A DNA stretch of 64,000 bases from IMG/VR virus record IMGVR_UViG_3300005512_000004. The stretch is one strand, 5' to 3'. Positions within the stretch are counted from its first letter, which is position 1, and each line of letters begins with the position of its first letter. The position numbers and the translations under genes are program-made. Below the pieces are notes generated by a model. It worked only from the letters and a program-made list of their open reading frames with translations, ran no database searches and had not been told where the DNA came from. Shown here one piece after another: positions 27,136-61,012 of this stretch. The DNA comes from an uncultured virus (IMG/VR IMGVR_UViG_3300005512_000004) (Duplodnaviria > Heunggongvirae > Uroviricota > Caudoviricetes).

Positions 27136-29562
27136 ATGTACAGCGAGCCACTATTTATAGAGAGAGCAAGTTCCTTCGAGAAGATCGCGGTTACTGTAAA
27201 GTTGCCGAATGACGAGACAAAGTGGGCGCCTATGGTGCTCTCTGAGCTCCATCGCCAAGCACCTATGATGCGCGATTTCCACTCAGAGATTACACTCGAC
27301 CGCACGGACCCGAATAAGGGGATAGGGTTCGGGTACATCTCTTGTCGACCTAAGACAGCAAACCCGCTCGCAGCGGGAGGTCTTCCAAGCATTAAGATTC
27401 CGGTCTTCGTGAAGAATTGGCATCTCTCACCGATCGATGTGTTCTTCGACGCGGCTGGGCGCGGGTACCACCTCTCTGAGCGACGCATACGTGAGGTGCT
27501 CGCGCGTCCACAGGTAGGCGCGGGTGCGGCCGACCCATCTGATCCCGTATCTGGAGACATCCGTACGATGCTTACGCCTCCTTGGGAGAACGTGGGGCAG
27601 TTCTATCGTGGCGTAAACACAGCTGTATCACAGAACGCGCAGGTAAAGACCTCGTCACTCCTACGTGTGATTGACGGTACGGTGGCGGCAGAGGACATCG
27701 CCAAGCTCGCAAGTTGGGTAAGCTCCGACGAAGGCCGCATGATGATGTGGGGCCAGCACGACATTATCCCTACGTTCAGCAAGGCGTTAAAGCTTACTGC
27801 GGGTGAGCCTTTAGGCGGGGAGAAGATCGCGGAGTACGTCGGTTCACCCGTCGTACAGTATCGTTGGGATGGTGGCCCTACCATGCTTGTTAAAGTAGCG
27901 CAGCCCGGTGGCTTCGCTCCGCAGCAGGGGCAAGTACCCGCAGATCAAGCAGCCCAGCAGATGGACCCAAATGCGCAGGCTCAGGTCGCGCAACAAGGTC
28001 AAGCGACGCAGGCAGATCAGATGCAGGTCATGTCTCCCGAGGAGATGGACGGTGACGACTTCCAGCCCGTAAGTCAGTTCGGCATTTACCGTGTTATTAC
28101 TGTAAATAACGAGCAGCTCATGGGTTGGGTCTTCCCGTTCATCTTGTCCTTTAAGATGGAGAAGGTGCCGCAGCAGATTTTTACGGACGGCTCGAACTTT
28201 GCGACACAACAAGCGATAGCGGGTGTACACGTCGCTACCAACTCCAATCTGCCGAACGAGCAACCACAGGGTCGTGGGTTCTTCTACATTATCCGCAACG
28301 GCCGTGCCTTTGCGTTTGCACCAATCGACCTACAGGGCGAGCAGCAACAGCCCGATGGCAACACGATGTACATGGCGCAGACGATTCTCGGAGGCAATCA
28401 AGTACAGATCATGAAGATACAGGGTATGAACGCTGCTGCCGAGATGGGAGAGAACCAGTTCGCGCTTCCGGGCGACGTCAAATGGTGCTCATTCAAACAG
28501 CAAACTAACCCGCTTATCGAAGATCCCATGCAGGCAGGCCAGCGTGCTGGGGCGTACACACTGCAGAAGATTCAGCAGAAGGCGCTTATGCAACAACAAG
28601 CGCAGGAAGCGGAGGCTCAGAAGGGGCAGAAGGGGCAGAAGGGGCAGAAGAAGACCGCAGCTTTTAAGCGAGAGATGCTCGCCGCGACAGGTGCAGCGAG
28701 TTTGATGCCGCTAGGCGCTACCTACATGGCGCGAAAAAGGCTCAAAAAAGAGGGGTACAGCGCAGAAGATGCGAGGAGCATCACGGGCGGTTACGCGCGA
28801 AATGCTGTGCAGGGCTTAACGCAGGGCGCTATCGGGATGGGGCTCGCGGGGCACGTCGGTGGAGGAGATAAGACCAAAGCTATCTCTGCGCTCACGGGCG
28901 GTGGTGCGAGAGCCGCGCAGATCATGCAAGACACCAACAAGTTCGTATTAGAGGACCGTGCACGTAAACGGTACATGGATCTTATGAGCAAGCAGTCAAG
29001 CGCACCCATCACCGCGGTGATTCGGGCTACCCAAGATAACACGTACACGCTATCAGGTACCGCCTTTGAGAAGCTGGCAAGCGAGCACACGCACTTCTTA
29101 GACTATGCGGACACCGAGTGGATGCTCGCGCTCGCAGGTATCGCGCCAGAGTATACACGTGAGAAGGTCGCGACAATCCACACGCTACATCGTGGGCGCG
29201 TAGAGATACCCGTGCTGCGTCCTGTGACACCCCCGCAGACCACCATTGTGAAGACCGCGGCTCTCGAGAAGGTGTGCTCTAAGCTCTCCCGCATGATGGC
29301 CAAGCACGCTAATGAGCTCCGTGACCCTAACATCGCGGACACCTTACTTGCTCTTAACTTCCTTAACCCACGCAACGTCAGTATGTTCATCAACTACATT
29401 CCGTTGATCGAGGAGACAACGTCGAGTATCGCTAACCTGCTCGTCGCTTCACGTCTCGGCGAGCGCTCGCTCGACGAGGGTGCGTGTAAGGAGGCGTTGC
29501 GCAATCTCGAAGACGTTCTTGCCGGGCTTAAGATGCTCGCCATGACACGCGAGAGTGTGTAA
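27136..29562 (+). CDS. Large putative internal head protein with many KxA/KxS motifs
   Basis: EKIAV, VKTSS, AKLAS, EKIAE, KKTAA, SKQSS, EKLAS, EKVAT, VKTAA; Gln-rich segments. Confidence 0.6.
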   Translation: MYSEPLFIERASSFEKIAVTVKLPNDETKWAPMVLSELHRQAPMMRDFHSEITLDRTDPNKGIGFGYISCRPKTANPLAAGGLPSIKIPVFVKNWHLSPIDVFFDAAGRGYHLSERRIREVLARPQVGAGAADPSDPVSGDIRTMLTPPWENVGQFYRGVNTAVSQNAQVKTSSLLRVIDGTVAAEDIAKLASWVSSDEGRMMMWGQHDIIPTFSKALKLTAGEPLGGEKIAEYVGSPVVQYRWDGGPTMLVKVAQPGGFAPQQGQVPADQAAQQMDPNAQAQVAQQGQATQADQMQVMSPEEMDGDDFQPVSQFGIYRVITVNNEQLMGWVFPFILSFKMEKVPQQIFTDGSNFATQQAIAGVHVATNSNLPNEQPQGRGFFYIIRNGRAFAFAPIDLQGEQQQPDGNTMYMAQTILGGNQVQIMKIQGMNAAAEMGENQFALPGDVKWCSFKQQTNPLIEDPMQAGQRAGAYTLQKIQQKALMQQQAQEAEAQKGQKGQKGQKKTAAFKREMLAATGAASLMPLGATYMARKRLKKEGYSAEDARSITGGYARNAVQGLTQGAIGMGLAGHVGGGDKTKAISALTGGGARAAQIMQDTNKFVLEDRARKRYMDLMSKQSSAPITAVIRATQDNTYTLSGTAFEKLASEHTHFLDYADTEWMLALAGIAPEYTREKVATIHTLHRGRVEIPVLRPVTPPQTTIVKTAALEKVCSKLSRMMAKHANELRDPNIADTLLALNFLNPRNVSMFINYIPLIEETTSSIANLLVASRLGERSLDEGACKEALRNLEDVLAGLKMLAMTRESV
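28618..28650 (+). repeat. 9-bp tandem repeat CAGAAGGGG x3.7 (QKG) immediately before KKTAA
   Basis: Seen directly. Confidence 0.85.
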
Positions 29563-33229: not shown

Positions 33230-33776
33230 CTCTGTCTAGCTGCGCCTTAGTGAACGCTGCCGCGATAGGGGCACGCACGTCGTCACTCGAGGACGAACAT
33301 AGATACCCTAGCTCGAGCGCGACCTTACACTGCTCACCGAGTTTTCGGATAAGGCGGTCGCTCATACGTGCCACATCACGAGCGAGATCTTCAGCTCGCG
33401 ATACAGTCCAGCGCTCTAGAGGCTCACGGCAGAGGAAGTACAGCGTGTTGTGTAGGCTCTCTACGTCTACGTCGCCTATATTGAGCAGCTCTTTCGTACT
33501 CGACATGCTGAGCATAGACTCTAACAGCGCTAGACGCGCTTCGAGCTCCACGATACGTGCGCTGTTAAACATGTGCTGTTTCGTGAGTTGGTCGAGCTTA
33601 GACTCCGCGTCCGCGTTAAAGCGCGCAAGCTCGTCTGTGCTGTACATGTCTTTGTTATTTACGCGGATAGGTGTTATCTTGTTAGTTGCTTTGTACCGCG
33701 CGAGCGTACGTCTACTGACGCCAAGGACTTGCGCAGCTTCCGTTGACGTTAGATAATGTATGGACTGCCCAGACAT
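33210..33776 (-). CDS. MerR/excisionase-type HTH protein with coiled coil
   Basis: YLTSTEAAQVLGVSRRTLARY...YSTDEL. Confidence 0.8.
   Translation of the reverse strand: MSGQSIHYLTSTEAAQVLGVSRRTLARYKATNKITPIRVNNKDMYSTDELARFNADAESKLDQLTKQHMFNSARIVELEARLALLESMLSMSSTKELLNIGDVDVESLHNTLYFLCREPLERWTVSRAEDLARDVARMSDRLIRKLGEQCKVALELGYLCSSSSDDVRAPIAAAFTKAQLDRVTTVLG
33729..33757 (+). promoter_or_regulatory. Possible sigma70-like promoter TTGCGC-N17-GATAAT for the head operon
   Basis: 33 nt upstream of ATG 33790, inside the divergent HTH gene. Confidence 0.35.
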
Positions 33777-33789
33777 AGAGGACCTCACT

Positions 33790-34554
33790 ATGTATACGAA
33801 ACAAGATCTGAGCGCGCTCGGGAAAGAGGCGAGCACTATGCTTCTTGAGCACGGTGTACCACTAAATGACGCGATTATAAAGATCGCGAGTAAGCGTCCC
33901 GATATGACGAAGGAGCATGTGCAACGCGTCATAGAGAACGCTAACTTAATCACCTTTGAGGATATGTTTAAGGGCGCGTCGAACAAGCACATCACGTTCG
34001 ATCTCGCCGATCCGAATGTTATACACGCGGAGTTAGATAAGACCGAGGATATCCCCGATCCTATCTACGCGACTGAGCCCGAGTATCGACACTCTGGCGG
34101 CTTTGACGCTTTTGACAAAGAGGCGTCTCTCACAATAGTACCTAAGCACGTGCAGTGGCGACGAGACTACTACGCGACTAAATCTGCGATGGATCGCTTG
34201 GAGAAGACCGCGACAGCCATAGACGCGGAGGCAGAGGCACAAACCCATAAGTTTATAGACATGTGTAAGCGCGCTTCTCTTGTAAGCGGAGGACTTAAGC
34301 CCGTCTTGCAGCTCGCAGGATATGCATCCAAAGACCCCGAGGTGTTCACCAAGGTGGCGTCGGTCGTGACGCAGGCGCTAAAGAACGTCGTGAGCGAGGG
34401 GGACTTTGTTGACACGCTCCCTAATAAAAACCACCCTATTTATGAGTCGTACGCCCAACTCGAAAGTACGATCAAACTAGCTAGCAGGCATAAGGCGGGC
34501 GTCATCAACGCGGCTCGCATGCACGAAGAAGTAAAGAGCCAGGAGTACCTATGA
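33790..34554 (+). CDS. Putative prohead core protein with repeated KxAS motifs
   Basis: GKEAS, IKIAS, DKEAS, EKTAT, CKRAS, TKVAS, IKLAS. Confidence 0.6.
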   Translation: MYTKQDLSALGKEASTMLLEHGVPLNDAIIKIASKRPDMTKEHVQRVIENANLITFEDMFKGASNKHITFDLADPNVIHAELDKTEDIPDPIYATEPEYRHSGGFDAFDKEASLTIVPKHVQWRRDYYATKSAMDRLEKTATAIDAEAEAQTHKFIDMCKRASLVSGGLKPVLQLAGYASKDPEVFTKVASVVTQALKNVVSEGDFVDTLPNKNHPIYESYAQLESTIKLASRHKAGVINAARMHEEVKSQEYL

Positions 34555-35462
34555 GTGAGCAAGAGAAGATAGCCCTTTCGGAGACACAGCGCGCCCTCGT
34601 CACACCGATCGTAGGAGGTCTCGCTGCGGGTGGTATTGCGTACGGCCTGCCAGCAGCGCTAGACAAAATACGTGAAGTTCGTGTGCGCCGTAATAGAGAC
34701 GATTACATTACGGCTATGAAAGACGTACATCCTGATCTCAAGGGTATACCGAAGAAGGACCTGCACATCGCGTATAACTCTTTGGCGATGCACTCACCGC
34801 ACGTCTTAAGGGATCCCCTGCTTGGAGGACAAGAGCTCTTACGTATGTCGAAGTACCGCCAAGCGGACATCAACTCGCTGAACGAGTTGAACAAGCTGCG
34901 AGGCAACAGCATGATGGACCAAGCGTTTATGAATGCTACGACTATGGTCGCGGGCGGAGTATCTGAGGGCTTTAAGGGCTATCAAGCTCAGCGACAAGCT
35001 GATGCCGACCAATCTTATCGAGAAAAGATGGATAAAGCTCGCTCCGACATGGACAATGCACGAATGGAACTCGAGAATAATAAGCTCAAGGAGACCCGTC
35101 GGCAGTTTGGGGTGAGAGATGCTTATCAGAAGGATCGTGACGCGCAGCTAGACGCTAGAGAGCGTATAAGGATGAGAGACTCGAAGGCCGAAGCCGATCG
35201 ACAGTTCAAACAACGCGCTCGCCAGTTCACGCTGACACGCGAAGATAATCTACGTAATTCGCGGGTGCGCAACAAGCAGTTTAAGCAGACACACCAAGCA
35301 ACGTTAAATCGTGACGCGATAGCCTCATCGAAAAACCAAATGGAGGTCGAGAAGCATTTCGCTTGGGAGGCTGAAGGGAGGCCAGGGCCTATGGCGATCA
35401 AGCGGGCATCTGCCGAGCACATCTACGATATCGTAGCGCGTCTGCGAGATCGGAATCTGTAA
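34551..35462 (+). CDS. Putative internal head protein (N-terminal hydrophobic segment, charged coiled coil)
   Basis: EKIAL at the N-terminus, IKRAS near the C-terminus. Confidence 0.55.
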   Translation: MSEQEKIALSETQRALVTPIVGGLAAGGIAYGLPAALDKIREVRVRRNRDDYITAMKDVHPDLKGIPKKDLHIAYNSLAMHSPHVLRDPLLGGQELLRMSKYRQADINSLNELNKLRGNSMMDQAFMNATTMVAGGVSEGFKGYQAQRQADADQSYREKMDKARSDMDNARMELENNKLKETRRQFGVRDAYQKDRDAQLDARERIRMRDSKAEADRQFKQRARQFTLTREDNLRNSRVRNKQFKQTHQATLNRDAIASSKNQMEVEKHFAWEAEGRPGPMAIKRASAEHIYDIVARLRDRNL

Positions 35463-37654
35463 TGGCGATCATTAAGGAGAGCACATTCCCCTCTATGGGG
35501 CCGGACGGCGAACCCCTCGTTCGTCTTCTCGACTCGTTGCCCTCCGGCGCCGACATGGAGAAGACCGCGGGGATTCATCCCGAGATCCTTGCGTACAAGC
35601 AGCAACTCGAGCCCGAGCCTGGTAAAACCTACGTGCATATTCTAGCGTTAGGTGCAGGTGACTACTACGGCGCAAACCTTAACAACGACCACTTCCCATG
35701 GGCGGGACTACAGCACGACCACACAAAGACGGCGCACCCCTACATGCACGGGTACAAGACGTTTTTAAACGCACATGCGTTCGCGCACCATATGAACAAA
35801 GACCCGGAGAAGGCCTACGGCGATGTGCTCGTCTCAGTCTTGAACACGAAGATGAAACGTGTCGAGCTTATCGTAGCCATCGACGAGGAGAAGTGTGTCC
35901 GCAACGGTGGGCAGCGTACGCTCGACAAGATAAAAGCGGGCGAGTATCCGTCGACAAGCATGGGCTGTCGTGTTCCATTCGACGTCTGCTCCATCTGTGG
36001 TCATAAGGCGAAGTACCGAAGCGAGTACTGTGAGCACACACGCGAGAACATGGGTAAGATCATGGCAGACGGACGTAAAGTGTTCGTCTATAACCCGTAC
36101 CCACGCTTCTTCGATATCAGCTTTGTCTTTATCGGCGCTGACCGTACGAGCTTCGTACTCGAGAAGGTCGCGCATCTGGAGCAGCTGGAGAAGGGTGCGG
36201 TCTTCGGGGCGGCAGCAAAAGCTTTAGGCGCCACCTTCGGTACGCGCACGGGGCGTGCTGCGCTCACGGGCGCCGCTATGGGAGGTCTGACGGGCGCTAT
36301 AAGCTCGCCTGACGGCGCGCGGGACACGGGACTCCTTAAAGGTATACTCGCAGGCGGCCTCACGGGAGGTTTAGCGAGTAAGGCGCTTAACTCCAAAGCC
36401 CTCACACGCTTTGCAGGGGCGAAGGTAAACGCCGTAGGCGAGTTAGGCGGCGTCGCAGCACTCGGCATGGGTGCAAGTAGCGCAATAAACAGTATGACGA
36501 ACCCCATGCCTCCCATGCCTGCGCAGACGAGCTCATTAGATGGTATGCCTAAGGTCGCATACAACACGATGATGGCAAAGGCGCTCCGTAAGTCGTCAGG
36601 TACTGTGCAACCATATATGGGTATGCGTGTTAAGCGGAAGGTTGCGCGCCAGCAATCATTGAAGGTAAAGGGCGTAACTTTCTCAAAGCTTAAACGTGGC
36701 GCGAAAGACTCGGCTGCTAGCGCGCTCGAGCTGTCTGCATTTTCCCCTCTGCCGATTCTCACGAAGGGTATGTACGACGGTACCGCGGGCGACACCGCTG
36801 TTGGATATTCGGAGGAAGCTGTGAAGGACAAGATGGTTGAAAAAGTCTCCGCGCTTAAATCTGCGACGGTGACTAAACTCTCGGACATCTTCAAAGACGT
36901 CACCTCTACACCCATGGGGCGTGCCGTGCCTATGAGTGTTGGTGCCGAGCCCGACATGTCATGTACGCAAATGGACTCGCTCGCAAGTAGCCGAGATCTA
37001 GGACAGTCTCTCTCGGGGCTCGCCTCCGCGGGCATCGTGCTAAAGCCCAAAGAGTTCCAACGTGTCGTGCTTGTACGCAGCGGTATGCGTGATATGGCGG
37101 ATGAGCTGGAGCGGCACAACGCTGTGTTCCCCGAACACGCGCCCACGGTCCGATCTGTCCGTATTGTTATCCAGAGTGATCCGCAGCAGACGGTGCCCAG
37201 AGGTGTGCTGGATCTAGTGCGTAATATGCTGCCGCATCGTTCGGCCCTCACGCCGTTTGCACTGCGTAGGCCTGTGTCTAACCCTGCGCCGACACCGCAC
37301 GTAGTGCGTCTGCGTTTAGGAGAGAGTCCTGTTCTGGATAAGGTAGCGTCGCTGTATAACGGATATAGAGAAGATGTTCTCCTGAATATGGAGAACATGA
37401 TTAAGTCCGCTATGCTCACACCTGACATCACATCAGCTGTCGCGAACATACGCGGGTTTAGTGATGGACAAGGGCCTGCCTTCAACGCTATGATGCAGGT
37501 ACCCCTCGCTTACTTTAGTCATGCCTACTGGAACAGATGTTGTTGCGACCGTACGCTATCTGATCGACAGTTTGCAGAGAAGTTCACTGAAGACAACCCA
37601 GAAATTGCAAGATATATTGCACAACATATTGCTACAGCCCGTAGTATAACGTAA
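35462..37654 (+). CDS. Prohead maturation protease (HK97/herpes assemblin-like fold) with Zn insert and long C-terminal extension
   Basis: NNDHF, HAFAHH..KDP..AYG, STSMGC (candidate catalytic Ser), CSICG...CEH, DISFVFIGAD; upstream of scaffold and capsid genes. Confidence 0.7.
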   Translation: MAIIKESTFPSMGPDGEPLVRLLDSLPSGADMEKTAGIHPEILAYKQQLEPEPGKTYVHILALGAGDYYGANLNNDHFPWAGLQHDHTKTAHPYMHGYKTFLNAHAFAHHMNKDPEKAYGDVLVSVLNTKMKRVELIVAIDEEKCVRNGGQRTLDKIKAGEYPSTSMGCRVPFDVCSICGHKAKYRSEYCEHTRENMGKIMADGRKVFVYNPYPRFFDISFVFIGADRTSFVLEKVAHLEQLEKGAVFGAAAKALGATFGTRTGRAALTGAAMGGLTGAISSPDGARDTGLLKGILAGGLTGGLASKALNSKALTRFAGAKVNAVGELGGVAALGMGASSAINSMTNPMPPMPAQTSSLDGMPKVAYNTMMAKALRKSSGTVQPYMGMRVKRKVARQQSLKVKGVTFSKLKRGAKDSAASALELSAFSPLPILTKGMYDGTAGDTAVGYSEEAVKDKMVEKVSALKSATVTKLSDIFKDVTSTPMGRAVPMSVGAEPDMSCTQMDSLASSRDLGQSLSGLASAGIVLKPKEFQRVVLVRSGMRDMADELERHNAVFPEHAPTVRSVRIVIQSDPQQTVPRGVLDLVRNMLPHRSALTPFALRRPVSNPAPTPHVVRLRLGESPVLDKVASLYNGYREDVLLNMENMIKSAMLTPDITSAVANIRGFSDGQGPAFNAMMQVPLAYFSHAYWNRCCCDRTLSDRQFAEKFTEDNPEIARYIAQHIATARSIT

Positions 37655-37696: not shown

Positions 37697-39340
37697 ATGA
37701 GCATGGATGAAATGCTAATGAACGAATTGTACGGGTCAGAAGAGGCCCAACAAGAAGAGCAAATTAAGCAGGCTCAAGTCGAGCTAGTTGAAGCGGTAGC
37801 CACTGAGGCAGGCGTCAACCTAAACGAGCTCGACGATGACGAGTTAGCAAAATTCGCACACTATGTTTTGTCCGATGAGGATGAAAAAACGGCCTCTTTA
37901 GCGGAGGCAGACGCTATGGGCCGCCAAATGGCTCACGCATACATGGACGAGATCAACAACCACTCACACAATGGAGATCATATGTACGGAGACACTCACG
38001 TTAAGATTGCGAGCGCACTTAATGATGTCGCTGAGGCCTGGGAGCTGGAGAAGACCGCACTGAGCGCTGCAGATCAGCAGTACATGCTGCTCAACCCCGG
38101 TGCTGCCTACGCCCCTGGTGACTTTCAACGCATGAGCCCTCTCGCACAACAATACGCCGAGATGGAGGCGCGTGCAGGTACTCAGGGTTCGGCTGCGCCC
38201 GCTCGTACGGGCGTGGGCGGCTACGACGTAGAGCGCGCANNNNNNNNNNNNNNNNNNNNNNNNNNNNNNNNNNNNNNNNNNNNNNNNNNNNNNNNNNNNN
38301 NNNNNNNNNNNNNNNNNNNNNNNNNNNNNNNNNNNNNNNAGGCTCAAGTCGAGCTAGTTGAAGCGGTAGCCGCTGAGGCAGGCGTCAACCTAAACGAGCT
38401 CGACGATGACGAGTTAGCAAAATTCGCACACTATGTTTTGTCCGATGAGGATGAAAAAACGGCCTCTCTAGAGGAGGCAGACGCTATGGGCCGCCAAATG
38501 GCTCGCGCATACATGGACGAGATCAACAACCACTCACACAACGGAGATCATATGTACGGAAACACTCACGTTAAAATTGCGAGCGCACTTAGCGATGTCG
38601 CTGAGGCCTGGGAGCTGGAGAAGACCGCACTGAGCGCTGCAGATCAGCAGTACATGTTGCTCAACCCCGGTGCTGCCTACGCCCCCGGTGACTTTCAACG
38701 CATGAGCCCTCTCGCACAACAATACGCCGAGATGGAGGCGCGTGCAGGTACTCAGGGTTCGGCTGCGCCCGCTCGTACGGGCGTGGGCGGCTACGACGTA
38801 GAGCGCGCAGGGGCGAAGTCTAACAAGAAGGGCACTGACGCCGGCCGCGAGATGGTCGCCGACTACTATGAGAGGCAACACAAGGCCAATCCCAATATCA
38901 AGCGCCCCGGTGACGTGAAGTCGAATGCGTCATTCCTCAGCCGAGCAGGTGATCACCTGAGCGCCCACAAGGGTAAGTACATCGGTGGTGCTGCTGCACT
39001 TGGTGCTCTGGGCGCAGGTGCCTACTACATGAAGAAGAAGCGCGACGCGCAGAAGAAGACCGCGGCTTTCCTCGACAATGGGTACGAGGCGCTCGCGCTG
39101 ATTAACATGTACGAGCCCGAGGAGTTCGCCAAAGAGGCAGAGTTCCGTGCAGCCGAGATTCTTCTCGCGAACGGCGTAGATCCGGAGACCTTTGAGAACG
39201 TCTACCCCGAGCACGTCAAGATTGCCTCGTTCCCCGATGTTGATGATGCTGTCGACGGCTACGAGGCCCAGCTTGTCGCAGAGTACAACGACATGCTCGA
39301 TACTGCAGCCATGCACATCATCGAGAACATTTTAGACTAA
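37697..39340 (+). CDS. Acidic scaffold/core-like head protein (spans an assembly gap; length unreliable)
   Basis: AAGGAG SD; highly acidic; IKQAQ, EKTAS, VKIAS, EKTAL, KKTAA, AKEAE; 100-N gap inside. Confidence 0.6.
   Translation: MSMDEMLMNELYGSEEAQQEEQIKQAQVELVEAVATEAGVNLNELDDDELAKFAHYVLSDEDEKTASLAEADAMGRQMAHAYMDEINNHSHNGDHMYGDTHVKIASALNDVAEAWELEKTALSAADQQYMLLNPGAAYAPGDFQRMSPLAQQYAEMEARAGTQGSAAPARTGVGGYDVERAXXXXXXXXXXXXXXXXXXXXXXXXXXXXXXXXXXAQVELVEAVAAEAGVNLNELDDDELAKFAHYVLSDEDEKTASLEEADAMGRQMARAYMDEINNHSHNGDHMYGNTHVKIASALSDVAEAWELEKTALSAADQQYMLLNPGAAYAPGDFQRMSPLAQQYAEMEARAGTQGSAAPARTGVGGYDVERAGAKSNKKGTDAGREMVADYYERQHKANPNIKRPGDVKSNASFLSRAGDHLSAHKGKYIGGAAALGALGAGAYYMKKKRDAQKKTAAFLDNGYEALALINMYEPEEFAKEAEFRAAEILLANGVDPETFENVYPEHVKIASFPDVDDAVDGYEAQLVAEYNDMLDTAAMHIIENILD
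37770..38809. repeat. 470-bp near-identical direct repeat (37770-38239 and 38340-38809) flanking a 100-N gap
   Basis: Copies differ at roughly ten positions; N run at 38240-38339. Confidence 0.9.
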
Positions 39341-39416
39341 ATTCACAGCGTCCTCTCTCCCGCACCCGCCGCGGATGTGTCACGGATGCGGGCAATAGGG
39401 GCGTGAGGAGGATACT

Positions 39417-40220
39417 ATGAACGTACAAGATGTTATTGAGAAAGCCTTAGCGGGCAACGACGGCATCCCCGTTACACCCGCTGAGCACTCGGTTGCCGAG
39501 GATGCACAGGTAACCAAGCTCGCCGCCGCGTTGAACTTTATCGGGACCAATCTAGAGTCATCTGTTAGTGACTTTGAGCAAGAGAAGAGTGCCTACCTCG
39601 ATATTGTCGGCGGAACCGCCGCCGGAGGAATAGGCGCAGCGTCATCTCGCGAAAAGATGAGGCGCGCAGGCATGAGCGAGGAAGAGATTGATGACGTCCA
39701 AACCACAGGCGGCGGCGTACTCCGAGGTGCAGCGAAAACTATGCTCGGTAGTCTAGGCGGTTACCTTGTGGGCGGGAACGCAGGAGCTCTTGCGGGAACA
39801 GCGCTTGGTGGATACGCTAGTTATGCCGGAGAGATGGCAAGGGGTAGGAAAGCCCTCAAGAGAAGAGAGAACGCTCAAAATCAGCGCGAGTTAGAAGTGC
39901 GCAGGGCACAACAAAAGACCGCGTCTGTAGATGACATGCTGTACCGCGCCGCACAAGCGGGTAAGCAAGCTCTTCTTGAGAAGGTCGCGGAGGATCGTAT
40001 CAACCCTGCTAAGATCTCTGCGGGCCCGGCCGCCTCATACTCAGGTGAGATTATGCCTTCGGGCCCAGCGGTGTTCGGCGGAGGTACTATGCCTGCGCAG
40101 TTAATCGCGATGAAGGCACAGAAGGTACGCGCACGCATCAACAGCGATATGAAGCAGTTCGTGAACAATGTCGGTGACGGGTATAACCTCCAGGGTCACC
40201 TAAACAAGATGAACAAGTGA
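39417..40220 (+). CDS. Putative internal head protein with Gly-zipper cassette
   Basis: GAGGAGG SD; TKLAA, EKSAY, QKTAS, EKVAE. Confidence 0.6.
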   Translation: MNVQDVIEKALAGNDGIPVTPAEHSVAEDAQVTKLAAALNFIGTNLESSVSDFEQEKSAYLDIVGGTAAGGIGAASSREKMRRAGMSEEEIDDVQTTGGGVLRGAAKTMLGSLGGYLVGGNAGALAGTALGGYASYAGEMARGRKALKRRENAQNQRELEVRRAQQKTASVDDMLYRAAQAGKQALLEKVAEDRINPAKISAGPAASYSGEIMPSGPAVFGGGTMPAQLIAMKAQKVRARINSDMKQFVNNVGDGYNLQGHLNKMNK

Positions 40221-40227
40221 GGAACGC

Positions 40228-40578
40228 ATGAATAAGATCGCATCTATGCGCGCCGCGGGCGAGTTAATTAAGACAGCCTCCGCTGTTATGATGAGCCAAC
40301 AACGCGAGATCGAGGCGCTCCGCGCAGAGCTTGACGCGCGCGACCGCGCTAGTGAGGCCGCCGAGCTCGCCGTACGTATGGCCGACGCAGGTCACATCGA
40401 CCGTGCCGATCTCGAGGAGAAGGCTGCGGAGTTCGTACAGGACCCGAACCGTATGCCGATTATCAGCGAGGCGATTAACCTGCTAGACAATGGCGGCTTC
40501 GATATGGCATCATTATCTGACGAGCAGAGTACGGGATCCAACGCCCGCTCACAACTAGAAGCATTCTTACTCGGCTAA
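40228..40578 (+). CDS. Small scaffold-like protein
   Basis: NKIAS, IKTAS, coiled coil, amphipathic C-terminus QLEAFLLG. Confidence 0.55.
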   Translation: MNKIASMRAAGELIKTASAVMMSQQREIEALRAELDARDRASEAAELAVRMADAGHIDRADLEEKAAEFVQDPNRMPIISEAINLLDNGGFDMASLSDEQSTGSNARSQLEAFLLG

Positions 40579-41213: not shown

Positions 41214-42362
41214 ATGTCATATTCAGCAGAGATGGTAAACAGTTTATTTGTCGAGAAGCTCGGTACCGAGGAGGGTCGTCAGAAGATCGCCGCTTACGGT
41301 GGCGGTGTCATTCGTGACCACCTCCGCGAGGTTAGCTTTGCGCGCAAGGTGCTTCCTCCTATGCCCGTCACTCCCGCAGAGTGCCAGGTGAGCACTGAGC
41401 ACGACGGCCTCGTGAAGATCGAGGAGCTCGAGCCCGAATCACGCGCGATGGTCGTCGACTTCCGCGGCTCAAGCCGCGCTCGCTACATCCGCGCGCCCCG
41501 CGTCGCGGTTAGCTTCTTCACCATCGAGTCCGAGCACTTCGAGAAGACCGAGCAGGAGCTGCTCGCGTACAAGATGCCGATCACCAAGATGATCGAGGAG
41601 CAGTCCGCGAACAACCTCCAGGAGATCGAGGATCGTCAGTTCCTCATCTACGCTGAGGCGGGCATCCAGCAAGTGCAGAAGGACGCGAACACCACGCACG
41701 CGTCTCACGGCAAGTTCAACGCTTCTGAGATCAACGCGAGTAACGTCGCATACGGTCCCGACCAAAATGCTTCTGTGATGAAGGGCCAACTCGCTCTTAC
41801 CGCGGGCGCTGACGACTTTGTGGTGCGTCCTGTTAACCGCCCCGACTTCGTTAACTTCTTCAAGATGATGGCAGGCCCTGATCGTCGTCTCCGTCTCGAC
41901 CTCGTCCTCCTCACCGAGCCTGACTACGACGACATCCTTCAGTGGACCGTCGAGGACATGGGTGATCGTATCCAGAGCGAGACCGTTGTTGACGGCTACA
42001 AGTACAACACTCTCTTGGGTCGTCGCTTTATCCGCACCATCAAGACGGACATTCTCCGTCGCGGTAACATCTACGGCTTCGCGGCACCTCAGTTCCTCGG
42101 CTGCTTCTACGTGCTCAACAACACCAAGTTCTACGTCGACAAGGTCGGCAACAAGATCACCTTCTGGTGTTGGGAGGACATCGGTATGGCGTTCTTGAAC
42201 CTCAACTCGTTGATCAAGATGGAGCTCTACTCGGGCTCAGTCACTCCGGGCTTCGAGGATGCTGGTCATACGATTCGTCTCCCCGCGGACGAGGAGGACT
42301 TGGGCCGTGCACGTAACCGTGCGGATGACGGCTTCCAGAGCCCCATCGTGACTCAGTTCTAA
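41214..42362 (+). CDS. Major capsid protein (HK97-type)
   Basis: 382 aa; strongest C/G-ending codon bias in the window; position after protease, scaffold and decoration genes; IRDHLREVSFARKVLP, LQEIEDRQF. Confidence 0.75.
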   Translation: MSYSAEMVNSLFVEKLGTEEGRQKIAAYGGGVIRDHLREVSFARKVLPPMPVTPAECQVSTEHDGLVKIEELEPESRAMVVDFRGSSRARYIRAPRVAVSFFTIESEHFEKTEQELLAYKMPITKMIEEQSANNLQEIEDRQFLIYAEAGIQQVQKDANTTHASHGKFNASEINASNVAYGPDQNASVMKGQLALTAGADDFVVRPVNRPDFVNFFKMMAGPDRRLRLDLVLLTEPDYDDILQWTVEDMGDRIQSETVVDGYKYNTLLGRRFIRTIKTDILRRGNIYGFAAPQFLGCFYVLNNTKFYVDKVGNKITFWCWEDIGMAFLNLNSLIKMELYSGSVTPGFEDAGHTIRLPADEEDLGRARNRADDGFQSPIVTQF

Positions 42363-53438: not shown

Positions 53439-54404
53439 ATGTCTGACATGAGCTATAGGACACTGAGGAACATACGAAAACAGATCAGAACCGATGAGCC
53501 GGACGTTGGTAGTAGGGGCGTAGAGATCGGACAAGACGAGGTAGAGCGCAAGGACACCAAGGCGCGTCTTATGGAGGCGATAAGGCTTGGGCCCACATCC
53601 TCTAAGCCAGGACACGAGCGTACGCACATTGTGCGTGGTGTAGATAAGGACGAAGACTCTGAGCGTGCTCTCGCGTACGGTAAGAACTCATCCGAGTCCG
53701 CTAATCGATACAAGAAGGTGACACCCAACTCGTCTATGGAGTCGCAGTCCTTCTCATCCGTTAAAGTCGCGGCCGTACAGAAGCAGGAACGTCGAAAAGT
53801 CCAGGCTATCCGAGCAGATAAGTCGAGCGTAATGCGTTACATCGATGTCATCAACGCTCCCCCTGTGATGCTAGATGTCCCTGTCGACGAGATGCCGATG
53901 CTCCCCTACCCGAGCAACGACAGCGAGGAAGTCGCGAAAGAGATCGACATCATCGTAGACGCACAAGACAGCGCCCCTCTCCCCGACAGCGTTATGGATC
54001 TCGCAGACGAGGAGCCTATGGAGCTTTTTCGCAGAGCGTGTCACGCTGTGGGTGTCCCTGTAGACGAGCAGACGTCCGAGATGTTGGTACAAGACCTTCG
54101 TCGTATCGCGCTCACTCTCAAGTACACACACTTGCGTCCTAGACCTGCAGAGATCGCGCCTTATCATAACCGCTACGTGAGTGTTCAGGACTTCGATCCT
54201 TACGATGATACCCCGTCATATCCGAGTGTACATGCTACGATCGGGTACGGGCTCGCGAATATGTATGCGACGCTTTACCCCGACTTCGCAGCAGAGTTTT
54301 ATAACGTCGGAGACACGATTGCCATGCAACGTATCCAGAGCGGTCGCCACTACCCGAGTGACAACGAGTACGCACGTGTGATCGCAAACTTAGTGCTGAG
54401 GTAG
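53439..54404 (+). CDS. PAP2/acid phosphatase-superfamily protein with N-terminal extension
   Basis: KYTHLRPRP, PSYPSVHA, RIQSGRHYPSD. Confidence 0.85.
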   Translation: MSDMSYRTLRNIRKQIRTDEPDVGSRGVEIGQDEVERKDTKARLMEAIRLGPTSSKPGHERTHIVRGVDKDEDSERALAYGKNSSESANRYKKVTPNSSMESQSFSSVKVAAVQKQERRKVQAIRADKSSVMRYIDVINAPPVMLDVPVDEMPMLPYPSNDSEEVAKEIDIIVDAQDSAPLPDSVMDLADEEPMELFRRACHAVGVPVDEQTSEMLVQDLRRIALTLKYTHLRPRPAEIAPYHNRYVSVQDFDPYDDTPSYPSVHATIGYGLANMYATLYPDFAAEFYNVGDTIAMQRIQSGRHYPSDNEYARVIANLVLR

Positions 54405-56583: not shown

Positions 56584-59500
56584 ATGTCTAAACGTAAAAA
56601 ACTTTACCACGGCTCACCACATAGATTAGACGAGATAAGGCCCACTATCGCAACAGGTAAGGGCGAAGCGTCTGCGCGAGAGCACGCTATTTACTTAGCT
56701 GATAGCCCAGAAGAGGCGAGGCTATACGCGTTAACACGTCCACGTAATAATAAACGCAAGGGGTGGGCGATCTTAGATAACAAAGTACATTACGTTAAAG
56801 GTGACCCTATCAATAAGCAGGGGTACGTATACGAGCATGAGTTCGATGACTACGCACCTCCTCCCGAGTCAGACCCCGGCATAGGTTATCGTGTTTATGG
56901 TGCGTATAAACCCACAAAGCGCAAGAGAGTAAGACTGAAGGGGATCGAGGATCAATTCGTAGAGCACCCAGACAAAGCGTCTTATAAGGCTAGGGTTAAA
57001 GAGTGGCTTGCTTCTCGAGAAAAAACCTCTAGCTATCGAGAAGGTGGGTCATTTACGCATGAGGGAACTGAGTACGACTTAGACCACGCGCTATCGCTCG
57101 CAGACAAACAACCTGTAACATCCACAAGAGTTAAAGATCTCGCGTGGGTATTGCGGCACGGCAAAGCTGATCCCGAAAGAGTACGTCGCGCTGACCTATC
57201 TGCACCTCTACTCGTTAGTCGTACTAAGAACGGAAAGCCCACTGTTGTAGATGGGTTCCATCGATTAACTAAAGCCAACAATGAAGGAGTAGTTAGCATG
57301 CCGACCAGATTCGTAGATCGCAGAGAGCTCCGCAAAACATCGGCAGTAAAGCACACGCTTGTTACAGGACACAGCGGTGCAGGTAAGACTACCTTATCTA
57401 AAAGGCTATCGGAGCAAAGCGGGTTACCTATATACGAGTTAGATAAAGACCCCGATATCGTAGAACAGTTAGAGCGACAAAAAGCGTATATCAAGGCGAG
57501 TGGGGGCTTAGATCGAGGCGCTAACGCTAAGCTACCTACGGGTCCCGAGTGGGATATCCCCTTCCAGAGAGCGTCTAAAGCAGGAATTGACCGGGCACTT
57601 GCGCTAAAGACACCTCACGTCATTGAGGGCACGTACTTACTCGACAGAGACCCTAACCTCTTGAGAGATCACGAGCTGTACTTAGTTGATACGCCTGAAG
57701 ACCTCGTACTGAATAGACGTGTAGAGCGTCAGAGAATAAAAGATATAGCTAGGGGAAGGTATTGGGGCGACGATAGAGCTGCGGGGGTTAGATTACGCGG
57801 ACAACAGCTAATCGACGAGAATAAACAAGGCGCTGCTAGGTGGCGTAAAGCTGATTTCGTTAAAAAGTCCGCACTAAACAAGGTAATGCAGCAGGCAAGC
57901 ACTACGAAATTAGCAAGTAAGAGATTTAGACACAGAGCGGGATTGATTATAAGGGACGAGCAGGGCCGCCTTCTTGTCAGTGAGGCATCTCCTGCGCAGG
58001 TCGCGGGAGGTGTCAGCCGTATAAGCCTGCCGGGGGGAGGCATACACGATGACGAGAATGAGACACGCACGCCCACTAAGCGAGAGATCATTCGAGCAGC
58101 CCGCAGAGAGGCCCTAGAGGAGCTTGGTATGCGTATCCGTAATCCTCGAGTACTCGGCTCCCACAGCGGCGAGCTCGAGGACTGGTGGAAGGATCAGCAG
58201 GAGAAGAAGCGAGGTGTACGCTTTGACGGCGCAGCCGAGCACTTTGTTTTAGCGAGTCCGGGTAAGAAGGACATGAGCCTCTACAATGTAGAAGGCGACG
58301 CTTTCCCAGGCAAGTACAGAGATATGACGGAGTTAACTCCTTTAATGGAGCAAGACGCCAACCGAGATTCCGCTTTTGCGCAGTTCAACAAAAAGCAACT
58401 TGAGCTGCTACGCGGTCTGCAAAAAACATCTTCATATGTTCGAGGACAGCACATGACTAAATCAGCCACAAAAGAGGAGCGAGCAGGTGTCCGTGTCGGA
58501 CGAAAGCTCTATCGACCCAAAGTTCAAGCGTTTATGTACGACAACCAAGGACGTATCTTGGCCGCGAAATCACAAGCAGCGGGCTCGGGGTTACGTGCCT
58601 ATAGCAACTACAAGTTCCCTGGCGGTGGCGTAGAGCCGGGCGAGAACATTCCCGAGGCGGCGCGTAAAGAGCTCCTCGAGGAGGCAGGGTACGAGGCGGG
58701 CGGTGACTTGTTCGAGTTCGGCACACCCACGCCCGTAGATTGGGACAGAAAGTTTCGCGCACAGGCACGTAAGAAGGGTCGCGGTGGGTACGCAGGGCAG
58801 TATGAGTACTACGCCGCTGGGCCTATTGGTAAGCGCAACACGTCACTGCTCGGCTCGGAGGGTGACGCGCTAGGCGGGATGGAGTTCGTACCAATCCGAG
58901 CGCTTAAGCGAGATCTGCGTAAGACGTCTACCGACCCAAATAACGAGTACGGGTATTTTGACACGCAGAAACTCGTAGCGCTCAAAGCGCTCGAGAAAGA
59001 GCTCAAGCAGCGCGGCGTAAAGACAGCCTCAGCACGTCTCAAGCAAATTGCGCTCCCACCAGAGCTCACACAGTTCTCGAATAAGTACTACCAGACGTAC
59101 GGGCAGGGGCGCGCTATTAACTACGGACAAGAGCGGTTTGACGAGTACCGAAGGCCGCGCACCAGAAGAGAGAGGAGCTTAGAGGAAGCGTACGCGACGA
59201 AGACCTCCGCGCTGCTCGCCGCGGATGATCTCGTTAAGAAAGCGGAGAAGGGCGTAGCTCAGAAGTCCGATCCAGCAGAGTGGGCTAGAGCAAAGGCGCA
59301 AGCGCGTGCTAAAATGGGAGGAAAGCACTCTGCACGCGCGATGCAGCTCGCTACGCAGATCTATAAGAAGAACGGGGGTGGCTATCGTGGAGCGAAACCA
59401 TCGAGCGGCACCAACAAACTCAAAAAGTGGACCAAGCAAGATTGGCAGTGGTCAGGAAAAGACACGCCCGGTCCCGGAGGTACAGGTGTCTACCTCCCAA

Positions 59501-59649
59501 AGCGCTCCACAGATCAGCTCAAGTCAACCGACTCGGGTAGAGATAAGCTGCGTGCCGCCGCAGCCGCAAAGCGCGCCGCAACCGCGTCCGGTAAGCAATT
59601 CTCGAATCACGGTCTTCATGTTGGACGAAAGCGAAGTGACGTTCGATGA
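56584..59649 (+). CDS. Multidomain polyvalent protein: ART-like + ParB/Srx-like + P-loop kinase + Nudix + Nudix + basic C-terminal domain
   Basis: YHGS...IYLA...GYVYE; VVDGFHRL; GHSGAGKTT; LPGGG...REALEELG; FPGGGVEPGE...KELLEEAG; HSARAMQLA...YKK.GGGY (DUF5872-like, from recall). Confidence 0.85.
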   Translation: MSKRKKLYHGSPHRLDEIRPTIATGKGEASAREHAIYLADSPEEARLYALTRPRNNKRKGWAILDNKVHYVKGDPINKQGYVYEHEFDDYAPPPESDPGIGYRVYGAYKPTKRKRVRLKGIEDQFVEHPDKASYKARVKEWLASREKTSSYREGGSFTHEGTEYDLDHALSLADKQPVTSTRVKDLAWVLRHGKADPERVRRADLSAPLLVSRTKNGKPTVVDGFHRLTKANNEGVVSMPTRFVDRRELRKTSAVKHTLVTGHSGAGKTTLSKRLSEQSGLPIYELDKDPDIVEQLERQKAYIKASGGLDRGANAKLPTGPEWDIPFQRASKAGIDRALALKTPHVIEGTYLLDRDPNLLRDHELYLVDTPEDLVLNRRVERQRIKDIARGRYWGDDRAAGVRLRGQQLIDENKQGAARWRKADFVKKSALNKVMQQASTTKLASKRFRHRAGLIIRDEQGRLLVSEASPAQVAGGVSRISLPGGGIHDDENETRTPTKREIIRAARREALEELGMRIRNPRVLGSHSGELEDWWKDQQEKKRGVRFDGAAEHFVLASPGKKDMSLYNVEGDAFPGKYRDMTELTPLMEQDANRDSAFAQFNKKQLELLRGLQKTSSYVRGQHMTKSATKEERAGVRVGRKLYRPKVQAFMYDNQGRILAAKSQAAGSGLRAYSNYKFPGGGVEPGENIPEAARKELLEEAGYEAGGDLFEFGTPTPVDWDRKFRAQARKKGRGGYAGQYEYYAAGPIGKRNTSLLGSEGDALGGMEFVPIRALKRDLRKTSTDPNNEYGYFDTQKLVALKALEKELKQRGVKTASARLKQIALPPELTQFSNKYYQTYGQGRAINYGQERFDEYRRPRTRRERSLEEAYATKTSALLAADDLVKKAEKGVAQKSDPAEWARAKAQARAKMGGKHSARAMQLATQIYKKNGGGYRGAKPSSGTNKLKKWTKQDWQWSGKDTPGPGGTGVYLPKRSTDQLKSTDSGRDKLRAAAAAKRAATASGKQFSNHGLHVGRKRSDVR

Positions 59650-59703: not shown

Positions 59704-60549
59704 ATGGCGGGCCAATACCGTATGCGACGGAGAAGGCTCGCCATTGTTCTACTCGATCTCATAGGTAGCACCGCCTTTGTGCAACGTTACGGTGCCGTAA
59801 AAGCTGCGCAGTGGTTTCAGTATCACGACAGGCTCGCACGCAACCTTGTCTACAAGTTCGGTGGGCGCGAGATCGACCGCAGCGACGGCTTCCTTTTATC
59901 GTTCGAGAGCGTACTAGACGCTACTAACTTCGCCCTGCACTACCAAGCTACTGTTCCCGCCAAGACACGCCTTGGTACACGTATAGGTATTCATTGGGGG
60001 GACGTTATAGAGGTCGAGCAAGACGAGCTCTGGGTGGGTGCGGGTGCAAAGAGCGTAGAGCTCGAAGGCCTCGCCAAGAATATCGCAGCGCGTACAATGA
60101 GCCTGTGCCGAGCGGGGCAGGTGTTACTGACAAAGCAGGCCTACGATGTCCTACGTGGCAGGACAAACATGTTTACCCCAGAAGGCACGCGATCTGCCTG
60201 TGTGGGTGTTTATAAGTTCAAGGGTGTACGCGAGTCTATGGACATCTACGCCATCGGCACAGATGTACGCCAACTGCAACCGCCTCCAGGATCAGACAAG
60301 GTGAAGCGGTTAGGCGGCCCAAAGTACATCAAGGTGCGTGCCCGAGACCGCAAGCTAAAAGAGTGGGTACGTTGGGTTGGGTATCGTCTGTATGTTATAG
60401 GGCTGCTGTTGGGTCTGTACTTCTTCTTACGTGCCTGTATGTCGCCTCTTGCGCGCGACGTCTTCGGGCTCCAAAGCTTTTGGTGGGTAGAAGCTTTTGT
60501 CGCGTTTGTGTACGCGCTTATAGAGGAGTTATTAAATGGGAAATCCTAA
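59704..60549 (+). CDS. Class III nucleotidyl cyclase with C-terminal TM helices
   Basis: LLDLIGST, DRSDGF, RIGIHWG, NIAAR, GQVLLT, FKGV; two hydrophobic helices at the end. Confidence 0.88.
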   Translation: MAGQYRMRRRRLAIVLLDLIGSTAFVQRYGAVKAAQWFQYHDRLARNLVYKFGGREIDRSDGFLLSFESVLDATNFALHYQATVPAKTRLGTRIGIHWGDVIEVEQDELWVGAGAKSVELEGLAKNIAARTMSLCRAGQVLLTKQAYDVLRGRTNMFTPEGTRSACVGVYKFKGVRESMDIYAIGTDVRQLQPPPGSDKVKRLGGPKYIKVRARDRKLKEWVRWVGYRLYVIGLLLGLYFFLRACMSPLARDVFGLQSFWWVEAFVAFVYALIEELLNGKS

Positions 60550-61012
60550 AAACGAGCAACCGACTCGGCAGTTCACGCAGTCCGAGAAGGCGAAGCGCGG
60601 CTGGTGGGCGAGCGTCGTCTTTATGCTGCTGATTGTCGCACTCATCATCTTCTTAAGCTACGTCAAGATCGTTGAAGAGAACCGCGACATCCTTATCGGT
60701 ATCATCGGCATGCTTACGGGCAGCATCAGCTCTATGCTAGCGATCGCGAGCGGACGAGACCCAAGCGAGATGGAAGAGCTAAAAGAAAAGCTCTCGGCAG
60801 CGAACGCTGATCGGGAGGCGCTCATCGCTAGGCTACGTGACGCGCAGATTCAGATGCAGCTGTTACGGGAGCAGATCTTCGAGCTACAGAACGCGGTCAT
60901 CGACAAACTATCATTGTTCTCGGGTAGCCCTCCCATTAAAAAGAGGCGAGAACAAGATGTCTCCTTACCGGACGTAGTCGAGCAATGGCTGCCCGGTAAG
61001 GATGAGAACTAG
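60536..61012 (+). CDS. Two-TM + coiled-coil membrane protein (holin-like or cyclase partner)
   Basis: GAGGAG SD; two TM segments then heptad repeats. Confidence 0.6.
   Translation: MGNPKNEQPTRQFTQSEKAKRGWWASVVFMLLIVALIIFLSYVKIVEENRDILIGIIGMLTGSISSMLAIASGRDPSEMEELKEKLSAANADREALIARLRDAQIQMQLLREQIFELQNAVIDKLSLFSGSPPIKKRREQDVSLPDVVEQWLPGKDEN

Follow-up and report, generated by a model that had tools for sequence, protein, structure and literature searches.

Module layout of the polyprotein gene

The window analysed here, a stretch of 64,000 nucleotides from an uncultured virus (Caudoviricetes; IMG/VR record IMGVR_UViG_3300005512_000004), is a fragment of a large myovirus that encodes a portal protein, a fused beta-beta' RNA polymerase, a terminase, and capsid and sheath proteins. 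On its plus strand an open reading frame (ORF) at 56584-59649, with a Shine-Dalgarno-like GAGGAGG upstream, encodes a protein of 1021 amino acids (aa) that an initial annotation had described as an enzyme polyprotein carrying a K-x-[S/A] motif at its domain boundaries. The ORF and its multi-domain layout are present as claimed, with two Nudix domains above the Pfam cut-off and the other assignments weaker, and all of the sites cited sit at the nucleotides given for them; the one behind the kinase, read as K428, has its true register at K427 (homologues read V-K-K-A-A/S), and K885 is an extra site that had been overlooked. The modules (M1 to M7) and sites are as follows, with a slash for the predicted cut:

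56584..59649, plus strand: polyprotein ORF, 1021 aa, with 49 other homologues of 561-1787 aa
56584..57030, plus strand: M1 (aa 1-149), ART-fold domain, Arr/ART-PolyVal-like, with H9-G-S and Y37
57022..57033, plus strand: site K147-T-S/S, edge of the M2 deletion in P0003, P0004 and P0007
57031..57342, plus strand: M2 (aa 150-253), ParB/Srx-like domain (DGxHR)
57334..57345, plus strand: site K251-T-S/A
57343..57870, plus strand: M3 (aa 254-429), P-loop kinase-like domain (GHSGAGKT)
57862..57918, plus strand: paired sites K427-K-S/A and K442-L-A/S, with a 15-aa spacer between them
57916..58431, plus strand: M4 (aa 445-616), Nudix hydrolase 1, whose Nudix box has an insert and keeps REALEELG
58423..58470, plus strand: paired sites K614-T-S/S and K626-S-A/T, with a 12-aa spacer
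58468..59028, plus strand: M5 (aa 629-815), Nudix hydrolase 2 (GGGVEPGE...KELLEEAG), which holds K780
59020..59031, plus strand: site K813-T-A/S, the top matrix score
59029..59208, plus strand: M6 (aa 816-875), 60-aa module that recurs in homologues
59200..59247, plus strand: paired sites K873-T-S/A and K885-K-A/E, with a 12-aa spacer
59245..59646, plus strand: M7 (aa 888-1021), basic DUF5872-like domain

The two Nudix stretches pass the Pfam gathering score (E 1.3e-21, 77.5 bits versus 21.1); the best named matches of M5 are RppH/NudI-like, all under their curated cut-offs (the RppH model scores 49 on the Nudix region, with a cut-off of 116). The kinase, ParB/Srx-like, ART-like and DUF5872-like labels are putative, given by sub-threshold matches of hidden Markov models (HMMs) or by atlas look-alikes. 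M3 has weak AAA_18/NMP-kinase matches under the cut-off, with no close relative of the kinase. M2 matches phrog_17560 (E 4e-14), a ParB phrog (E 0.009) and, weakly, SbnI; domains of this type occur in jumbo phages, stand-alone or fused, and one is part of the virion protein gp140 of PA5oct. M1 resembles the Arr-ms clusters of the atlas (0.94, 153 shared features) and matches ART-PolyVal under the cut-off (E 0.011) in nine of the ten aligned members; it has the His/Tyr core of ARTs, the conserved catalytic Glu was not seen in the alignment, the Arr-ms HMM did not match, and the ART profile found no real match in the PDB. M7 is DUF5872-like by the atlas (0.96; the family is on 39% of the cluster members), and a PHROG search with M6 returned no match. 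A single-sequence AlphaFold model of the whole chain (predicted local distance difference test, pLDDT, 40.6) was not used, so that the domain limits rest on homology. The chain thus laid out holds at least two biochemically unrelated effector domains, in an architecture that varies among homologues, and domain-library scans found no embedded peptidase, MPTase, MuF or ArdC-N anchor in it. The 15-aa spacer between K427 and K442 resembles the end of a lost DUF4269 module, and the 12-aa spacer between K873 and K885 resembles the leaders of stand-alone DUF5872-like genes. A pattern search of viral contigs with the Nudix pair gave no match, and a promoter and terminator scan stayed at chance level.

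As a loose pattern, K-x-[S/A] is in no excess over chance in the polyprotein (18 occurrences versus 14.7 expected) and was rejected as a statistic; the signal lies in the narrower KT[SA], which occurs six times versus 0.75 expected. We then used a motif matrix, obtained as a mixture model on 6611 lysines of the head proteins of relatives (loci L012-L090, with the twin locus L011 excluded; of 202 viral loci that encode a related protease, the best 80 supplied the relatives), whose consensus is [L/M/F]-[E]-K-[T/L/V/I]-[A 0.76, S 0.11]-[S/A/E/G]. The top ten of the 93 lysines of the polyprotein are K813, K614, K147, K251, K442, K873, K885, K780, K427 and K626, and nine of them sit at joints, K780 being inside Nudix 2; the tenth scores 2.6 and the next-ranked lysine 1.0. 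Five sites reach a score of at least 4, versus 0.70 in shuffles (P 0.0003), and ten reach at least 2.5, versus 1.7 in shuffles, a number attained in 0 of 3000 shuffles.

Exchange of modules at the motif in homologues

The homologue set, drawn from the 8000 best candidates scored, comprised 50 proteins of 561-1787 aa, the polyprotein included. Gain or loss of modules exactly at the motif, the comparison that the initial annotation had pointed to, is what they display: modules are gained, lost and reordered there. The ParB-like module is absent exactly between two sites in P0003, P0004 and P0007, and SNF2 helicase, DUF4269, PAP2, GNAT, flavodoxin and HNH modules are inserted in other homologues. 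When breakpoints were clustered from alignments of at least 60% identity and at least 80 aa, with ends over 30 aa away from any terminus, 142 out of 300 lay within 10 aa of the motif, versus 33+/-5 at random (maximum 54 in 2000 draws), and control motifs gave 8 versus 9.6 (R for K), 10 versus 11.2 (E for K) and 8 versus 7.9 (Leu at P1). The motif also stood at 108 of the 119 internal flanks of six modules (matches of at least 45% identity and at least 80% coverage), versus 17% of random 21-aa windows. Furthermore, when 63 proteins (the 50 homologues and 13 chosen locus ORFs, up to 2344 aa) were cut at the motif in silico, 285 of the 329 segments of at least 45 aa fell into 46 recurring clusters, and the Nudix module had 19 different left and 21 different right neighbours. 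In a profile search for ART homologues, motif-flanked copies were found mostly in long chains and the distant stand-alone copies were without the motif; among the higher-scoring matches a site was present in 18 of 23 with a downstream extension and in 19 of 40 with an upstream one.

The motif could be only a fusion scar or a favourable linker in an uncut cytoplasmic protein, its modules being exchanged by short DNA homology. The M2 deletion between two K-T-S sites could use such homology, and motif-free stand-alone modules exist (the ART modules of L096, L097, P0052 and P0174), but we regard this explanation as very improbable, since codons vary freely at the sites, site density is higher in head-type and plus-strand genes than in minus-strand ones (a partly circular comparison) and the motif changes with the protease lineage, as described below. 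Because synonymous codons differ between sites, the motif is not a DNA repeat, and an origin as such was ruled out; the Ser codon at P1 is TCN in eight of the eight cases counted, one base from Ala.

The very fast gain and loss would agree with another explanation, in which cutting takes place but the modules, left over from fused cargo genes, are mostly non-essential passengers or filler with little anti-host role. Deletion scars (the 15-aa spacer and the remnant in P0008) and the abundance of small modules, basic or Gly-rich, for which no activity is known would fit it too. Against it, the Walker A and Nudix-box residues are kept at 90% or more across copies and DGxHR is kept in the intact ParB-like copies, and injected polyvalent proteins repeatedly include ART, GNAT, SNF2, InPase, ParB and kinase domains (PMC5512222), so that we hold it to be decidedly unlikely.

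Two side observations concern the ART homologues. In P0194 the ART homologue is joined to a histone H3 sequence, probably as a chimera, and P0197, P0204, P0207 and P0209 are distant stand-alone homologues with Tyr/Lys-rich leaders of a kind seen in giant eukaryotic viruses.

The prohead protease and the register of its putative site

The head module of the window includes the following features:

27136..29562, plus strand: motif-rich head-module protein, 10 sites scoring at least 4
33760..34554, plus strand: motif-rich scaffold-like protein, seven sites
35462..37654, plus strand: prohead protease chain, 730 aa, domain at about aa 37-237, between K34-T-A and K235-V-A
37697..40578, plus strand: three motif-rich scaffold/core-like genes between the protease and capsid genes
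41214..42362, plus strand: HK97-fold major capsid protein, whose N-arm has K24-I-A-A

The protease sequence found no match in the PDB, and Foldseek gave herpesvirus proteases only at E of at least 0.009. A model of the protease built from 59 aligned sequences (pLDDT 92.5) was superimposed on T4 gp21 with Z 10.1 (root-mean-square deviation 2.7, 130 residues aligned), on the varicella-zoster virus protease with Z 8.9 (2.9, 116 aligned) and on another herpesvirus protease with Z 6.4, versus 4.7 or less for unrelated structures; the model has the T4 gp21/herpesvirus assemblin fold. H109, H110, S166, D218 and S220 are invariant, and judged by this invariance, rather than by mapping on gp21, S166 and one His, H110, would be catalytic. 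In related ORFs K-x-[AS] is found before the protease domain in 78 out of 80 and after it in 75 out of 80 (twin L011 included), and the latter motif is placed like the herpesvirus release site. Cargo also lies within protease chains: in P0216 the ART module stands directly behind the protease domain, between the K288 and K426 sites, and an InPase domain was above the cut-off only in such chains, in 18 of the 18 long protease ORFs scanned. These chains (L059, L029, L027 and 15 others, 707-1469 aa) hold InPase between motifs, and L042 also has an RRM.

The cultured carriers of this protease group are the Vibrio phages D69/D181/D148, Salmonella phage Arash, phage G (gp19), cluster C mycobacteriophages and Erwinia jumbo phages, and its GTDB relatives are on seven contigs of metagenome-assembled genomes from mixed phyla. 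As judged by eye, the Erwinia phage Yoloswag, whose protease is distant, has little K-x-A enrichment, and the head proteins of Myrna use K/R-x-A. Annotated as a tape measure, Myrna gp97 (L091:19887-23522) is a protease chain that has many K/R-x-A sites and a weak methyltransferase match, and phage G gp7 (L006:4151-6943) is a repeat protein with six sites of the K/R-x-A type.

That the motif also marks the head proteins, as the initial annotation had stated, was borne out by the motif-rich genes of the window and by relatives, in which 183 homologues of six head-module proteins have 1742 K-x-A, versus 689 expected; the motif is common to scaffold/core proteins, protease ends and cargo. In partly circular comparisons, ten hand-picked head-type genes carry 11.6 sites per 1000 aa versus 0.95 in the minus-strand genes of the window, and the related loci carry 6.66 on the plus versus 0.22 on the minus strand. 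In Arash, K-x-A sites cluster in gp218-gp225. The capsid N-arm (41214-41300; TEEGRQKIAA) resembles by eye the TEEGRVALA of phage G gp27, in which the Lys is missing and whose listing in PDB 6WKK begins at residue 1; the K24 site may be structural and is possibly uncut. The ORF at 37697-39340 runs across a gap of 100 N (38240-38339) and has a stretch of about 190 aa in duplicate, which inflates its motif count; this duplication is probably an assembly artefact, because the twin contig L011 has an ORF of 357 aa. The fused beta-beta' RNA polymerase (19548-25859, 2103 aa) has no motif scoring at least 4, and the split RNA polymerase subunits of Arash are among its most abundant virion proteins.

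A swap of register in other phages speaks most strongly for the motif as a protease site, cut after K-x-[A/S]. The ParB-like module starts with x-Y-x-E, preceded in the present group by K-T-S, K-I-S, K-T-A or K-H-A. Ten of 41 phage records with this module were examined, three of which were stand-alone genes, and in all of the seven others, where the module is fused or extended, x-x-Glu stands at the K-x-[AS] position: I-S-E in PA5oct gp140 and Paride, A-L-E in RP12, A-V-E in FLC1-1B, and S-x-E, in frame upstream of the annotated start, in Psa21, D6 and RVTF4. These seven records amount to about three independent groups. The head protease of phiKZ has the site S/A/G-x-E, and RP12, FLC1-1B, Psa21, D6 and RVTF4 are, we presume, phiKZ kin. 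[quoted passage not shown] The alignment with these Glu sites suggests that the cut falls after the Ala/Ser of K-x-[A/S], and the sites predicted for the herpesvirus PrV (pseudorabies virus) are likewise after Ala (YLQA-T and VQA-S; PMC4498786).

This register also bears on whether the motif merely ends an amphipathic helix that docks proteins on the prohead core, the protein being packaged and ejected whole or only trimmed. Such docking would agree with the helical look of the conserved spacers and of the leaders M-x-F-x-D/E-E-L-x-K-I-A, with an excess of sites among the N-terminal 40 residues of plus-strand ORFs (172 and 275, versus 69-115 per 20-aa bin), with the separability of targeting and cutting in T4 (PMC9026906) and with the unprocessed packaging of the N4 virion RNA polymerase (PMC5512222). 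We consider it unlikely, given that conservation at most internal joints is limited to three to four residues, that the motif after the protease domain is placed like a release site, and that x-x-Glu stands in exact register before the ParB-like module in phages with Glu-type proteases.

Several of these records have features of their own. In D6 (L122:577-586), RVTF4 (L123:685-694) and Psa21 (L119:677-686) the upstream gene ends in G GGA AAG, C CCA AAG and A GCA AAG, respectively, right ahead of its stop, where a -1 shift would read into the ParB-like module via the S-x-E site; the RVTF4 upstream gene is annotated as an internal head protein, the annotated downstream start looks too late, and a programmed frameshift that lengthens a head protein is a candidate. 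In RP12 ORF042 (L117:1-1015) and FLC1-1B gp43 (L131:1-603) the ParB-like module is on the C-terminus of RNA polymerase beta', behind A-x-E.

Proposed release and packaging of the cargo

Taken as a whole, the polyprotein is probably a head cargo cassette that the prohead protease cuts into free enzymes. In this model (hydrophobic)-(E)-K-[T/L/V/I]-[A/S]/[S/A] would be the site of the protease at 35462, with the cut after the Ala/Ser two residues past Lys. The polyprotein would be made late and built into the prohead core, and during head maturation cuts at about nine sites would set free some seven domains (the ART-like and ParB-like ones, the kinase, both Nudix hydrolases, the 60-aa module and the basic DUF5872-like domain), which would stay in the head and be ejected with the DNA. 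Since the same cut would free each module, modules can be added, lost and reordered. Comparison gives good support to the protease-site part of the initial annotation (exchange, bracketing, cargo within protease chains and register swap), and we judge the cutting of the polyprotein at the motif to be highly probable; its packaging in the head is quite probable, and ejection of the freed domains with the DNA is reasonably so. Iyer et al. (PMC9503650) reported fusions of Nudix and ART domains to head proteins and proposed that they act early against NAD/ADP-ribose defences; here we would only guess, tentatively, that the enzymes act early on nucleotides, NAD derivatives or RNA ends against host defence. 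On balance we also lean towards a K/R-x-A plug-in cargo code in a large-myovirus lineage (this phage, Arash and D69, with phage G and the cluster C mycobacteriophages as distant kin), in which a gene would turn into cargo, packed in a polyprotein and freed in the head, by gaining the motif as leader or joint, and in which modules moved between lineages would adopt the motif of the local protease.

A number of observations count against this model. Among the breakpoints, 158 out of 300 are away from the motif, the deletion in P0008 has both ends within domains, the regular expression of the breakpoint test was picked after the motifs of the polyprotein had been seen, and the counts overstate independence because the sequences counted are related. 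K780 is an in-domain match (score 3.0), kept in one of 19 close Nudix-2 copies, and the motif-free stand-alone ART modules listed above are to be set beside it. The specificities of the PA5oct, RP12 and Psa21-type proteases were assumed from lineage. In SPN3US, 13 of the 14 cuts measured take off N-terminal propeptides, and 42 head proteins stay uncut (PMC10052503); because the cuts there are mostly propeptide removal, internal release of many enzymes is without measured precedent in that phage. The polyprotein lacks an N-terminal leader, its first residues already belonging to the ART module; its gene lies some 14 kb past the capsid gene, with ThyX and amidase genes around it, and of the stand-alone DUF5872-like matches 83 of 120 are leaderless. 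In Arash, the motif-rich gp220 and gp223 have 96-100% coverage in particles, and the SNF2-like helicase gp217 is in virions (PMC10585845) and is without a site, so that the motif is not needed for packaging; the 116 virion proteins listed may include carry-over, according to the authors (PMC10585845). Given the lack of a leader, the motif-free ART modules and the siteless gp217, packaging is no more than likely. Six phage G peptides were sought in eight supplement files and were absent.

Leaders are found in relatives. Among stand-alone DUF5872-like genes (24 matches of at least 64% identity), a leader of 14-17 aa ends in the motif in 16 of 18 leaders, resembling in this the capsid-targeting sequences of T4. 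A short motif-flanked helix, A-Y-x-L-G-x-x-L-A, occurs as leader, spacer or tail (L001, L106-L108; P0019, P0020, P0027), and other branches use F-x-D-E-L-x-K-I-A; both are candidate capsid-targeting elements.

The T4 system of gp21 with IPI-III and Alt shares with the present one the protease fold, a three-residue site, leaders ending in the site and ART cargo (PMC9026906). In T4, however, Glu is at P1, whereas here Ala/Ser is at the aligned position (the presumed P1) and Lys at P3; T4 cargo consists of single proteins trimmed at their ends, whereas here an enzyme chain with internal sites is seen, as known from sequence; and the N-terminal targeting propeptide of T4 type is lacking in this polyprotein, with leaders in some homologues. 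With SPN3US gp245 and phiKZ gp175, as is predicted here, many head proteins are cut at a short motif that prefers Ser at P1' (PMC10052503), but the SPN3US sites are A-x-E and the cuts remove propeptides, whereas K-x-A/S is here between enzyme modules. Herpesvirus assemblin (UL26) shares the fold, the release site after the protease and, by prediction, the cut after Ala (PMC4498786); its sites are hydrophobic at P3, in contrast to Lys at P3 and enzyme cargo here. Polyvalent proteins likewise join unrelated enzymes in one chain, of the ART, ParB, kinase, GNAT, SNF2 and InPase classes (PMC5512222). Their packaging, injection and proteolytic release as free effectors, by assemblin-like peptidases among others, were proposed in 2017 with an analogy to polyproteins and with the sites undefined (PMC5512222); they usually embed a peptidase, whereas here release would occur in trans, via the prohead protease at an explicit motif. 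Arash and D69/D181/D148 have a related protease (42-46% identity), a related capsid protein and K-x-A sites in the head module, but no polyprotein homologue is among their matches, and the accessible text of the Arash paper mentions neither protease nor cleavage.

In the open literature (subscription journals and bioRxiv supplements lying outside this scope) we found no paper that describes a K-x-A head-protease motif; the passages covered of PMC12484599, PMC7824862 and PMC13282480 mention proteases of this kind or features of jumbo phages and give no sites. The quantified module-exchange test, the cargo inside a protease chain and the register swap across lineages are new here, and the polyprotein idea is directly testable, because the sites can be named by residue, a candidate protease is at hand and relatives are in culture (Arash, D69). 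If the model holds, the motif would single out those uncharacterized domains that these phages deliver when infection begins, an Ala/Ser-P1 specificity would be added to those of phage head proteases, and a portable tag for loading proteins into capsids would be available; the plug-in code, if real, would be a bacterial-virus counterpart of the polyprotein processing of RNA viruses and would make injected effectors predictable from sequence.

Near the polyprotein gene, a stand-alone PAP2 gene is located at 53439..54404 (plus strand), the same domain being a polyprotein module in relatives. The polyprotein gene is followed, at 59704-61012, by a class III nucleotide-cyclase-like gene with a transmembrane tail and a coiled-coil gene with two transmembrane segments, and this pair also adjoins a polyprotein in L100.

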